From positions 28,329-92,328 of the forward strand of contig JAVVFY010000003.1 of assembly GCA_032249395.1 (NCBI GenBank): a DNA stretch of 64,000 nt, in the 5' to 3' direction. Of this stretch, positions 21,205-22,763 are shown piece after piece. This DNA comes from Candidatus Aenigmatarchaeota archaeon. GTDB taxonomy: Archaea; Aenigmatarchaeota; Aenigmatarchaeia; CG10238-14; SpSt-28. Numbering within the stretch: position 1 is the first letter of the stretch; each line of letters begins with the position of its first letter. The notes below the pieces were generated by a model, which ran no database searches, was not told the origin of the DNA, and saw nothing but the letters and a program-made list of their open reading frames with translations. The position numbers and the translations under genes were made by a program.

Positions 21205-21790
21205 AAGCTACTCTCACCTTTATCTCACTTTCTCCAAGTTTCGTTGATAAATCGCTTTTAACAGAAAACTCTAACTCGCAATAAGAGTTTACTTCGATTA
21301 CATTGCAAACTTTTTCTAAGGCGTCTGTCGAAAATCCTTTCGGCAAATCGACAGATACTCGAACGTTTGTGGCATTAGCACTTCCTTCATTGCTAACAAC
21401 AACTCTTAACAAGAAACTCTCTCCTCTTGTTATTCTGCTTTTATCGGTGCTTAATCTCAAAGAGATTTTTGGTTTTGCGATAATTTCTGTTGTTTGAGAA
21501 ATTTGCGTAGCAGATGTCGAAACGTTTTCACTTGCTCCATTTTCTTCTGTGCTATTAGATTCATTCATTTGAGTAAGTTCAGAAGAAGTTGTATTCGACG
21601 AGTCGACAGATTGTTGTGAAGTTGAGTTTTCAGAAACCAAATTTGTCGAAGCTGACTGTTCACTCGAATTTTCATTTGTTGTCAAATTTAGTGAGCTGTT
21701 CATAGCTTCTTGAGCAATCGACAAGTAGAAAAAGAAAGAAAAGGCTAAGAAAATTGCCAATAAAGCTAGAAATTGGGCTTTTCCCTTCAT
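21197..21790 (-). CDS. Small secreted protein: signal peptide, S/T/N-rich linker and a C-terminal CARDB/DUF11-like domain. It lies directly upstream of the giant ORF and overlaps it.
   Basis: The signal-like N-terminus is MKGKAQFLALLAIFLAFSFFFYLSIAQE. A low-complexity N/S/T/E stretch follows, then ITRGESFLLRVVVSNEGSANATNVRVSVDLPKGFS. The TAA stop at 21199-21197 overlaps the giant ORF's ATG at 21204-21202. Confidence 0.75.
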   Translation of the reverse strand: MKGKAQFLALLAIFLAFSFFFYLSIAQEAMNSSLNLTTNENSSEQSASTNLVSENSTSQQSVDSSNTTSSELTQMNESNSTEENGASENVSTSATQISQTTEIIAKPKISLRLSTDKSRITRGESFLLRVVVSNEGSANATNVRVSVDLPKGFSTDALEKVCNVIEVNSYCELEFSVKSDLSTKLGESEIKVRVAYE

Positions 21791-22763
21791 TTTTAACTCC
21801 TATTGCTTAACACTAATGATAAGCAGAGTTGTTTGTCGACCCATATATAATTTTTTTAACAACCTGTCGAGAGTGAAAATCGACAGTTCGACACCTCGAC
21901 AAAAAAGAAGAATAGCTTTTATTTTTAGAATAAAAGAAAGAATATATGCTTAAAGAGATTTTTGGTTTGAAAAAAGAAAACAAAGATGAAAAAATTGATG
22001 AGATGATTAAGTTAATTGATTCTCAGCTCTCTATGATTTCTATGGAAATTGAGAAGTTGAAGAATTTGGGTTCTAAAATTGAGAATATTGAGAAAAAAAT
22101 AGCAATTTTAGAAGAGCTTATTAAAGAACAAGGAGTCGAAATAAAGCCAAAACCGGTTAGTGAGAAAACAAAAGAAGCAATAAAGACTTTGTTGAAGAGA
22201 TATGGAAGCTTAAATGCCTGGCAGGTTGCCAAATTATTAAACATGTCTAGAACAAGATGCGCAGAATATCTTAAGCAAATGGAAGAAGAGGGGATTTTAG
22301 TCTCTCAATGGAAGAGTCGAAAAAAGTACTATTCGATTCGACAGTAAAATTTTTCGATGAAGTTTTTATTCGACAGATCGACTTTATCCTCTCTATAGAT
22401 TGTTCCCCTATGAAGTTTGTTTATTTTCAAGAATTTCGACAGTTTAACAAGCTTTATTTTTTGAGTAGTCTGAAGAAAGTAAGAGGAATTCTGAGTTGTC
22501 GAAAATCCGACAGTTATAATAGCTAGTTAGTTTTATTATTTTTTCTGTCGAAGTAGTTGTCGAGATGCTGTTGGGAGAGAATTGAACAAAAAATGCATTA
22601 TTGAAGGTGCATTCATCTCAATCTGTCGACAAAAATCGACTGTTTTTCTGAAATTCTCTACTTACTAGAGATAAAAATCTGAAGAGAGAAAAAATTTTGA
22701 GAGTTGAAGTATTTATCTTTAGCATTTTTAATTTTATTTCTAACTATCTAATCAACTCGACAC
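21325..22763. promoter_or_regulatory. Dense cluster of TCGACAG/CTGTCGA heptamers and TCGAC cores around the divergent promoter region and the regulator gene
   Basis: Exact heptamers start at 21325(-), 21348(+), 21603(+), 21864(-), 21880(+), 22338(+), 22370(+), 22436(+), 22545(-) and 22623(-). About 10 further TCGAC(A/T) variants are present, for example at 21718, 21834, 21888, 21896, 22378, 22497, 22558, 22636 and 22757. Confidence 0.6.
21946..22347 (+). CDS. Coiled-coil plus winged-helix DNA-binding protein (putative transcriptional regulator), divergent from the giant-gene operon
   Basis: The N-terminal half has a heptad-like pattern rich in E, K, I and L. The C-terminus TLLKRYGSLNAWQVAKLLNMSRTRCAEYLKQMEEEGILVSQWKSRKKYYSI looks like a MarR/TrmB-type wHTH. 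Confidence 0.6.
   Translation: MLKEIFGLKKENKDEKIDEMIKLIDSQLSMISMEIEKLKNLGSKIENIEKKIAILEELIKEQGVEIKPKPVSEKTKEAIKTLLKRYGSLNAWQVAKLLNMSRTRCAEYLKQMEEEGILVSQWKSRKKYYSIRQ

Follow-up and report, generated by a model that had tools for sequence, protein, structure and literature searches.

A locus-specific field of TCGACA words at a winged-helix gene and the promoter of a giant-gene operon in an Aenigmatarchaeota archaeon: a candidate operator array

Giant surface proteins are thought to hold DPANN archaea on their hosts and can occupy about 5% of these tiny genomes. Within the literature that was searched, nothing published was found on how their production is controlled. The locus described here raises this question, since a giant gene, the presumed target of regulation, and the small 197-aa gene that it overlaps by 8 nt are divergent from a gene encoding a 133-aa winged helix-turn-helix (wHTH) protein, and the DNA around both promoters carries many copies of one short word. 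What is this field of words for, and which protein reads it? The genome analysed (752,806 bp, 25 contigs) is that of an Aenigmatarchaeota (DPANN) archaeon; the window, meaning the whole stretch of DNA that was analysed, comprises 64 kb of contig C3. Feature coordinates are given in the table.

Features of the locus (window positions)
Feature	Position	Strand	Details
Giant gene (putative surface protein)	1-21204	-	>7,068 codons inside the window; runs past the left window end
197-aa gene, first in the giant operon	21197-21790	-	N-terminal TM/signal segment, Ser/Thr-rich linker, CARDB/NPCBM_assoc-like domain
Whole TCGAC(A) field	21325-22763	both	27 TCGAC cores (20 TCGACA, 10 TCGACAG) and the variant CCGACAG at 22507
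TCGACAG copies in the field	21325, 21348, 21603, 21864, 21880, 22338, 22370, 22436, 22545, 22623	both
GTCGAC palindrome	21835-21840	.	Promoter-proximal candidate operator of the giant operon
TATA-like element of the operon promoter	21843-21858	-	AT-rich, atatataattttttta; putative, from sequence and positional conservation
Four sites upstream of the regulator promoter	21864-21902	.	CTGTCGA (21864-21870), then TCGACAGT TCGACACC TCGACAA (21880-21902)
TATA-like element of the regulator	21917-21928	+	ttttatttttag; wHTH start codon follows after about 20-25 nt; putative, from sequence and comparison
133-aa regulator (candidate)	21946-22347	+	N-terminal helix (residues 3-61), then C-terminal wHTH
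GTCGA-N17-TCGACAG inverted pair	22316-22344	.	Inside the last 11 codons of the regulator (S-R-K-K-Y-Y-S-I-R-Q)
Downstream candidate auxiliary field	22370-22761	.	Non-coding; 10 TCGAC cores
Remaining non-coding gap	22764-23458	.	No TCGAC sites, no ORF >50 aa; lineage-specific
tRNA-Ile	23459-23534		Directly after the gap

The word and its distribution

An earlier note on this DNA, made from the sequence alone, had claimed ten TCGACAG copies in both orientations within about 1.4 kb. The window was found to contain 11 exact copies, in both orientations, 10 of which fall within 21325-22629; in dinucleotide shuffles of the window the heptamer occurred 2.0 times on average and at most 5 times, and none of the 100 shuffles reached 11. 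The note's estimate of about ten nearby variants was also borne out, with 13 one-mismatch copies in 21300-22800 compared to approximately 1.9 expected from the remaining window, and the three closely packed examples that it quoted (21880-21902, 22545-22564 and 22623-22642) were present as written.

The core shared by the repeats was TCGAC(A), with the consensus tTCGACA(g/a)(t/a)T and a repeat unit of 6-9 bp. TCGAC occurs 49 times and TCGACA 31 times in the window, and 27 and 20 of these copies, respectively, lie within 21327-22761. With 0.66 TCGAC sites expected in that interval, the Poisson probability of 27 or more is 7e-34. A genome-wide count, which the note had proposed as a test of locus specificity, revealed no comparable density elsewhere: among 375 TCGAC sites the next-best 1.5-kb cluster held 5, and TCGACA ranked first when all hexamers of the genome were ordered by local clustering. 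As expected of an operator array, the sites are over-represented and specific to the locus. Restriction avoidance or a compositional artefact was rejected, since the observed to expected ratios genome-wide were 0.96 for TCGA and 1.05 for TCGAC; neither word is depleted elsewhere, so the field is not a contrast produced by avoidance.

The 27 TCGAC sites occupy the four places that had been named for them: the 197-aa ORF has 8, the divergent intergenic region 6, the wHTH ORF 3, of which two fall within the last 11 codons, and the downstream non-coding DNA 10. Most are dispersed, with preferred spacings of 8, 21/22 and about 31 bp. The eight sites of the 197-aa gene (21327-21722) are built from rare codons, namely TCG (5.7% of Ser codons) and GTC (6.8% of Val codons). 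Similarly, R125 and R132 of the regulator are encoded by CGA, which represents 2.7% of Arg codons genome-wide, and its other three Arg residues by AGA. The field is a clear example of candidate regulatory words being accommodated in coding sequence by means of rare codons.

Downstream of the regulator the sites include pairs at 22370/22378 (8 bp), 22547/22559 (12 bp) and 22626/22636 (10 bp). The sequence past 22462 could not be aligned even to the closest relative found, which is 88% identical over an aligned 1.67 kb. A non-coding RNA or a hidden gene as the content of the field was rejected, because an Rfam search of the field and the gap returned the tRNA-Ile only and the longest ORF there (72 aa) was unconserved. 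The rest of the gap (22764-23458) is lineage-specific and so probably lies outside the regulatory system.

The divergent promoters, the regulator and their conservation

Read in the direction of operon transcription, the GTCGAC palindrome of the operon promoter follows the TATA-like box by 2-3 nt and precedes the start codon of the 197-aa gene by about 45 nt. In relatives, TCGAC is located 3-5 nt past the TATA-like box of the operon; this order of box and site recurred in the majority of 14 loci under comparison and was clear in 9-10 of them. On the other side of the intergenic region, three of the four sites upstream of the regulator promoter (21880-21902) are direct copies with an 8-bp period. 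The group of four is kept in three relatives (L023, L024 and L025), and in relatives a TCGAC site abuts the TATA-like box of the regulator with conserved geometry. From the position of that box, the leader of the regulator transcript would be short or absent.

Two observations on this group speak against the field being a repressive operator array. The 8-bp spacing of the direct copies is tight for neighbouring wHTH domains. In this genus the regulator-promoter sites precede the TATA-like box, and archaeal sites so placed may also serve activation.

The 133-aa protein matched the generic Pfam model HTH_24 (PF13412) over residues 85-118 with 26.7 bits (cut-off of 21.9); it was the only Pfam model above its cut-off, and most homologues carry a precomputed match to it. 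The AF2 model (pLDDT >90) comprises helices at residues 73-86, 91-98 and 102-114 and strands at 118-123 and 126-131, that is, a three-helix bundle with a beta-hairpin wing, and superposes on ArsR/SmtB-type domains such as CadC with an rmsd of 1.2 Å over 60 residues. In the model the long N-terminal helix (59 residues) is a probable coiled coil. The fold search returned generic wHTH matches only, with AspA at rank 23, and a PDB sequence search yielded no meaningful relative, the best match being a designed repeat protein. The protein has no ligand domain. Three families were considered and rejected: TrmB (PF01978; 23.4 bits, below the cut-off of 25.6), since the chain stops at the wing and the extra helix is N-terminal; MarR, since there is no helix past the wing but a single 59-residue N-terminal one, and the overall rmsd was 9-12 Å; and the ArsR/SmtB metal sensors, since alpha-5 is missing and the sole cysteine, C105, lies in the recognition helix. 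The recognition helix (SRTRCxEYLK) and the wing (RKKYY) were invariant in 29 homologues, and this invariance is matched by that of the DNA word.

The module comprises the 133-aa wHTH gene and, divergent from it, the genes of a small secreted protein and a giant one, all amid TCGACA sites; it was present in 13 of 13 mapped loci (L018-L030, L034-L036) from at least five GTDB families of the order. In these loci a regulator homologue of 31-86% identity is divergent from a very large gene, in some cases preceded by the small secreted gene, which usually reaches the contig end; the relatives have 8-26 TCGAC sites per locus, centred on the regulator, and the other neighbour of the regulator varies (tmk/tRNA, FEN1, topoisomerase or rpl2). 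Class-wide, a regulator homologue was found in 62 of 201 genomes. In 21 further 3.4-kb loci TCGAC exceeded compositional expectation throughout, marginally in one, and TCGACA was the top GC-containing hexamer in 13. The GTCGA-N17-TCGACA pair at the end of the regulator gene was kept in most orthologous loci of the order, where further copies follow at 22-bp steps.

Alignment columns at non-coding sites were 86-95% identical, compared to 61-68% for other columns (Fisher P of 1e-4 to 4e-3), and the positions of sites relative to the TATA-like boxes, which were deduced from sequence, were conserved in relatives. The sites therefore stand above the neutral background and are fixed with respect to the putative core promoter elements, as would be expected of an operator array. 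In four relatives the codons gtc-gaa and tcg-aca were fixed within an otherwise variable Ser/Thr linker. These comparisons suggest that selection on the sites acts at the DNA level. The sites in the 197-aa ORF of this genome had no positional conservation: outside them the gene is 96% identical to the copy of the closest relative, and presumed recent gains or losses are concentrated exactly at its TCGAC words. Since five of these eight sites are absent from that relative, some may be recent or non-functional.

The SRTRC helix is also retained by the homologues of a sister genus (35-38% identity), which have neither a TCGAC array nor a giant neighbour, indicating that the helix alone does not predict an array; they differ from the array-bearing proteins at K110V and R125K. 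A search of these sister-genus genomes for a displaced array gave a single conserved match, which lies within a MinD/ParA-like coding sequence and is thus not an array, and in their upstream intergenic region no word was repeated, although a small ORF there was conserved. A search for TCGAC-pair patterns in 23 further genomes was uninformative, because the GC-richer ones yielded many chance matches.

A candidate operator array and the alternatives

The best explanation, to which we assign a probability of roughly 0.7, is that the field is an operator array of the 133-aa protein, autoregulatory and probably repressive, for the giant operon. Because the same arrangement recurs throughout the phylum, in association with this protein family and with giant genes, the words are most likely the docking sites of the regulator for control of the giant gene. 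An operator array for the adjacent wHTH protein was the reading that the earlier note had put first, and it is favoured by co-occurrence, site geometry, comparative footprints and the CGA codons. In kind, the system would be an autoregulated winged-helix regulator with its operators. We infer that the 133-aa protein binds TCGACA and that its effect on the giant operon is repression, with cooperativity or looping presumably in use.

The 133-aa protein would oligomerise via its long N-terminal helix, with each winged-helix domain reading one TCGACA word. Occupation of the promoter-proximal GTCGAC would block the recruitment of RNA polymerase and so repress both the 197-aa gene and, through translational coupling, the giant gene; the sites at 21864-21902, beside the regulator's own promoter, would provide autoregulation. 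The flanking groups (21327-21722 and 22316-22761) may serve as auxiliary operators: through cooperative binding or DNA looping they would increase occupancy locally and give a sharper switch for a very costly gene.

A possible, although rather unlikely, extension is that the field is an evolvable silencing platform common to the phylum. The wHTH protein would bridge three groups of sites, in the 5' portion of the operon's coding sequence, at the divergent promoters, and at the 3' end of the regulator with the DNA downstream, in a looped or filament-like complex enclosing both promoters. Expression of the giant, presumably host-attaching protein would be switch-like, possibly bistable with ON and OFF states, and the number of sites would be tuned by lineage; it is 8 in some congeners compared to 27 here.

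A doubtful alternative is that the TCGACA words do regulate the giant operon but have a different reader, such as a membrane-anchored wHTH, its small paralogues or a global factor, with the 133-aa protein acting as a co-regulator or reading something else. In six relatives (L019, L026, L027, L029, L035 and L036) a conserved HTH (HPEGLT..S.A...G.HRHT..KY) and then a TM helix do form the start of the first operon product, and in such loci this domain could be the binder or a co-binder; paralogues of the domain are encoded in the present genome (C3:3108-3296, C3:443-697 and C5:42830-42997), and the array-less homologues of the sister genus would also fit another binder. However, no HTH is encoded by the first gene of the operon at this locus, in its genus or in family f3, yet an array is present, the largest one here. 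Furthermore, two sites are written into the last codons of the 133-aa gene itself across the order, and the 133-aa family is the one common denominator of all array-bearing loci. Small paralogues of the membrane-type wHTH were found in all genomes tested, so that this protein could not serve to tell the candidate binders apart.

Methylation of the TCGA core was considered very unlikely as the basis of the field. A binder and a TCGA methyltransferase would compete, resulting in heritable ON/OFF expression of the giant protein as in Dam/pap or agn43 systems. Giant surface proteins are typical phase-variable products, the palindrome TCGA is part of every site, and in the loci compared ten sites extend to the full palindrome GTCGAC. 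In contrast, the genome-wide frequency of TCGA shows neither avoidance nor excess, and the conserved A after TCGAC, together with the flanking T, points to an asymmetric word that is read by a protein. Such a switch would be an extra layer on operator reading rather than a substitute for it.

Slighter still is the prospect of a replication origin or a centromere-like partition site, the alternative raised in the earlier note, in which the wHTH protein would be an initiator or centromere binder similar to WhiP, AspA or TubR. The many short repeats in both orientations, the unusual 1.1-kb non-coding gap within a compact genome and the presence of the centromere protein AspA among the generic fold matches are compatible with it. 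The checks that the note had suggested, GC skew and orc1/cdc6, went against an origin. The sole full Orc1/Cdc6 gene lies on another contig (C1:105590-106438) and has no TCGAC nearby; one relative (G006) has it on the contig of the locus, at a distance of 305 kb, and five more carry the full-length gene on a separate contig. Cumulative GC skew did not turn at 22 kb; it turns at approximately 38 kb, where AT skew flips as well, suggesting that the genes change strand there. The 6-9-bp repeats are also not ORB-like (ORB elements are about 20-35 bp), and with no adjacent orc1/cdc6, ORB repeats or skew turn an origin was rejected. A partition centromere would call for a linked NTPase (ParA, TubZ or ParM), and none was found among the larger ORFs scanned nearby. 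Over about 7 kb downstream these comprised tmk, DUF763, an HTH-LAGLIDADG gene, FEN1 and an ORF without a Pfam match; the upstream neighbour is the giant gene. Moreover, in relatives the array is confined to an intergenic 130-250 bp, with rpl2, FEN1 or topoisomerase directly after it, which leaves no spare non-coding DNA and no room for an unwinding element, and the conserved linkage is with the giant gene and the TATA-like boxes. Chance, composition or a coding-repeat artefact, for which the eight sites in a low-complexity Ser/Thr-coding stretch might speak, was refuted by the Poisson probability and by sites that are mostly non-coding, in both orientations, made of rare codons where coding, and conserved throughout a phylum.

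With the operator array as the preferred reading, the 133-aa protein and TCGACA form a candidate regulator-operator pair that is conserved across the Aenigmatarchaeota and can be tested in vitro without cultivation. TCGACA arrays also provide a handle for finding regulated surface genes in new genomes.

Comparison with known regulatory systems

MDR1, Phr, LrpA and TrmB-type proteins are autoregulated archaeal repressors with operators that either overlap the TATA box or lie after it. The present locus is similar in that it has a small wHTH protein, a candidate site between the TATA-like box and the expected start, and more sites at the regulator's own promoter. The operators of those repressors are palindromes of 12-20 bp, one to three in number, whereas here 27 copies of a 6-7-bp word extend over 1.4 kb, coding DNA included; the 133-aa protein also differs in having no ligand-sensing domain and in belonging to a different sequence family, TrmB being below threshold.

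The lac (O1-O2-O3), gal, deo and lambda CI (OL-OR) repressors act through auxiliary operators and DNA looping. As in these systems, groups of sites a few hundred bp apart flank the promoter, with one group in the first structural gene, and the protein has a separate, in this case predicted, oligomerisation element. In contrast, the sites here are far more numerous and are single short words rather than dyads, and looping is a proposal. Fur (in the GATAAT hexamer model) and the omega repressor of pSM19035 (heptads) read arrays of short words. The resemblance lies in a very short word in direct and inverted orientation, with function arising from arrays, such as the three copies at 21880-21902; however, Fur and the ribbon-helix-helix omega protein have other folds, and their arrays are contiguous, whereas the sites here are mostly dispersed.

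ArnR and ArnR1 of Sulfolobus are membrane-bound one-component regulators (PMC6396743), an architecture resembled by those relatives' loci in which a cytoplasmic HTH fused to a TM helix heads the surface-protein operon; the operon in this window differs in lacking the HTH-TM domain. MgrA of Staphylococcus aureus, a member of the MarR family, is reported to be a winged-helix regulator of very large surface adhesins (PMC6548404). It shares with the present system a small winged-helix protein and a giant surface-protein target, which is presumed here. Unlike the 133-aa protein, MgrA is a bacterial global regulator that is not encoded beside its targets and is not known to have such an operator field.

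EarA, which activates the archaellum operon of Methanococcus and Thermococcales, reads the 6-bp word TACATA in one to four copies, adjacent where there are several; these are located only upstream of BRE/TATA, with none intragenic or downstream (PMC10665913). By its description it is similar to the system proposed here, being a small archaeal regulator with a 6-bp word repeated at the promoter of a cell-surface-structure operon; the present field differs from the EarA sites in that it also extends into the genes and downstream of them.

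Clustering of TCGAC words in the window and genome

The heptamer TCGACAG was found 11 times in the 64-kb window, and 10 of these copies fell within 21325-22629, in agreement with the earlier note, which had reported ten exact copies there; 11 copies were never reached in dinucleotide shuffles (mean 2.0). It had also described approximately ten variants; 13 further copies with one mismatch were counted in 21300-22800, compared to about 1.9 expected. The three tight groups that it quoted are present in the sequence. The words share the core TCGAC(A): 27 of the 49 TCGAC and 20 of the 31 TCGACA copies in the window lie inside 21327-22761. 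Alignment of 138 sites from the window locus and eight related loci gave the consensus tTCGACA(g/a)(t/a)T.

Counts were extended to all 25 contigs (752,806 bp) of the assembly, in which the window is C3:28329-92328; the genome is a small archaeal one (0.75 Mb, 33% GC). TCGACA was the most locally clustered of all hexamers. TCGAC occurred at 375 sites, and control loci in the same genome had 0-3. Chance was excluded as the source of the field (27 sites versus 0.66 expected, Poisson P = 7e-34). The earlier note had proposed that a similar density elsewhere, or restriction avoidance, would count against a locus-specific role; this test did not refute such a role, since the runner-up 1.5-kb cluster had only five sites and TCGA and TCGAC occurred genome-wide at 0.96 and 1.05 of the Markov expectation, respectively.

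Features in and around the field and at related loci (L numbers, homologous loci in relatives)
Feature	Position	Strand	Remarks
Giant ORF	1-21204	-	open at the window's edge; overlapped by the 197-aa gene
197-aa gene, first of the operon	21197-21790	-	TM segment, Ser/Thr linker, NPCBM_assoc/DUF11-like domain; in the field
Divergent intergenic region	155 bp		inside the field
133-aa gene	21946-22347	+	inside the field
Gene-free stretch, 1.1 kb	ends at tRNA-Ile (23459)		first 400 bp inside the field
HTH-bearing first operon product	L026:1-1909	-
HTH-bearing first operon product	L027:2-6904	-
HTH-bearing first operon product	L029:1-5579	-
HTH-bearing first operon product	L019:1-2457	-
HTH-bearing first operon product	L035:4790-5653
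HTH-bearing first operon product	L036:6425-7324

Within the gene-free stretch, 22764-23458 (~700 bp) is odd for a compact genome; it contains no TCGAC site and no ORF of more than 50 aa, gave no Rfam match and showed no similarity to the closest relative identified. The thymidylate kinase encoded at 23703-24299 has the P-loop GIDGAGLTT, with Leu in place of the expected Walker-A Lys. Outside the window, a 283-aa gene (C2:12856-13707) encodes a C-terminal HTH-like segment (…LTPKMQQILDILKERREISYQELAEKLGITTDGLRGILSRM…), and 14 GAATCG/CGATTC hexamers, the genome's second most clustered hexamer, crowd both ends of the gene. This may be another regulator gene lying within an array of its own word, or simply a peptide repeat in the coding sequence (…NRAES…). 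CRISPR-like direct repeats (ggttaaaatcagacta(a/g)tgtaggat(t/c)gaaa) were observed at the start of contig C12 (1-435), and the genome's only other close non-coding TCGAC pair (419-435, TCGACataaaTCGACAG) lies ~220 bp past them.

Conservation and anatomy of the sites

Of 41 close relatives, 22 had a homologue of the 133-aa protein, as did 62 genomes in a phylum-wide sample of 201; the NCBI source name of the homologues is Candidatus Aenigmatarchaeota. Thirteen loci (L018-L030 and L034-L036; 31-86% protein identity, at least five GTDB families) were mapped for genes and sites. In all 13, a very large gene, usually truncated at a contig end, was divergent from the homologue, sometimes with a 130-300-aa first gene between them, and 8-26 TCGAC sites were centred on the regulator. 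The regulator's other neighbour varied, being tmk/tRNA in the window and FEN1, topoisomerase or rpl2 at other loci. A second set of 21 loci, each 3.4 kb long and drawn from other families of the class, had TCGAC above compositional expectation in every case, only marginally in one; TCGACA was the top GC-containing hexamer in 13 of them. Sister-genus homologues (L031-L033; 35-38% identity), which are convergent with 400-1000-aa genes, had neither an adjoining giant gene nor a TCGAC array, and deviated at two otherwise invariant positions (K110V, R125K); the 200-bp "intergenic" region upstream of them encodes a small conserved ORF (MKIGRGKNLIFYFSKDPIDALEAIPPGYIVIEAKNGVPMLKK).

Site anatomy was read from oriented alignments of the intergenic regions. 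On the operon side, a TATA-like element was followed after 3-5 nt by TCGAC in most compared loci; in the window, GTCGAC (21835-21840) lies beside atatataat, ~45 nt ahead of the 197-aa start codon. The regulator's TATA-like element was abutted by at least one site, downstream of the element in several families and, in the window's genus, upstream of it as three copies with an 8-bp period (21880-21902). Across most of the order's loci, the final codons of the regulator gene contained a GTCGA-N17-TCGACA pair, followed in some families by more copies in 22-bp steps. In the window, this pair is created by CGA codons for R125 and R132; the gene's three remaining Arg codons are AGA, and CGA makes up 2.7% of the genome's Arg codons. 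Codons gtc-gaa and tcg-aca were fixed in four relatives within an otherwise variable Ser/Thr linker.

In non-coding DNA compared with three congeners, site columns were 86-95% identical and other columns 61-68% (P = 1e-4 to 4e-3); beyond 22462, conservation was limited to the words and some pair spacings. Sites within the 197-aa ORF turn over, with five of eight missing in the closest relative. This gene was 96% identical outside the words to that relative's copy (L024:3819-4412), and substitutions piled up at TCGAC words (6/36 site columns versus 20/558 others, P = 0.003), which suggests recent site gain or loss rather than neutral drift. As a cis-regulatory field, this set of sites is real, specific to the locus and phylogenetically conserved.

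The putative regulator and other candidate explanations

By its sequence, the 133-aa protein is only a generic winged helix, scoring above the HTH_24 cut-off; the tested criteria for TrmB, MarR and ArsR/SmtB membership failed. AlphaFold2 (mean pLDDT 88) predicted a single helix (3-61) and a canonical winged helix (73-131), for which Foldseek returned generic ArsR/MarR-type domains only and a PDB sequence search nothing useful. The recognition helix (S101 R102 T103 R104 .. E107 Y108 L109 K110) and the wing (R125 K126 K127. Y129) were invariant in 29 array-associated homologues, which matches the invariance of the DNA word.

Binding of the words by another protein was considered unlikely. A membrane-anchored HTH domain opens the operon in many relatives and has small paralogues in the window's genome, but the largest array is at the window locus, whose operon lacks this domain, and the 133-aa gene has two of the sites within its own sequence. 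A putative TCGA-methylation layer was judged very improbable as an explanation of the words. Also very improbable was a replication origin or centromere, the earlier note's alternative, which was contradicted by an Orc1/Cdc6 gene on a different contig without TCGAC nearby (305 kb distant in genome G006), no skew turn at the locus, no partition NTPase among scanned neighbours and arrays in relatives that leave no DNA to spare.

Family f18 has a short (~275-aa) Orc1/Cdc6-like paralogue at a distance of 15-25 kb from the wHTH/array locus (G093:C7:95090, G068:C1:96270, G137:C1:54827); it is non-adjacent and probably coincidental. The first product of the operon in other families starts with a cytoplasmic HTH domain of conserved sequence (HPEGLT..S.AK.SG.HRHT.AKY), then a TM helix and Ser/Thr linker, an arrangement pointing to a second regulator, tethered to the membrane, at these loci. 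This product is the giant protein itself in L026, L027, L029 and L019; in L035 and L036 its C-terminus is homologous to the window's 197-aa protein, which has no HTH. The giant genes of L026 and L029 also carry an intein-like N-terminal insert (…SSYDEETKVLT…GWKYFKDLSYEDEV…) with a faint precomputed Intein_splicing match, and the adjoining topoisomerase gene of L029 likewise has inteins.

Proposed regulation and known systems

The data support the earlier note's simplest reading, that the field serves the winged-helix protein encoded within it as an array of operators, tied here to the giant operon. For this explanation, taken together with operon repression, autoregulation and auxiliary operators, we place the probability at about 0.72. 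At archaeal promoters, polymerase is not recruited when a factor occupies the DNA between TATA and the start site. The regulator, at the TATA-proximal candidate site, would therefore repress the giant operon and would also control its own gene, and flanking site groups may serve as auxiliary operators, with the long helix providing for cooperativity or looping. In the window's genus, where sites lie on the upstream side of the regulator's TATA, autoregulation could equally be positive.

Nothing describing a regulator for the giant genes of DPANN archaea was found in the literature searched. The regulator with its operators is a known kind of system, unusual in having 27 sites in 1.4 kb, partly written into codons. 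Its way of working would be like that of archaeal TATA-proximal autoregulated repressors; its multi-copy hexamer logic is shared with EarA (PMC10665913) and with Fur or omega arrays, and repressors that loop by means of auxiliary operators are a possible parallel.
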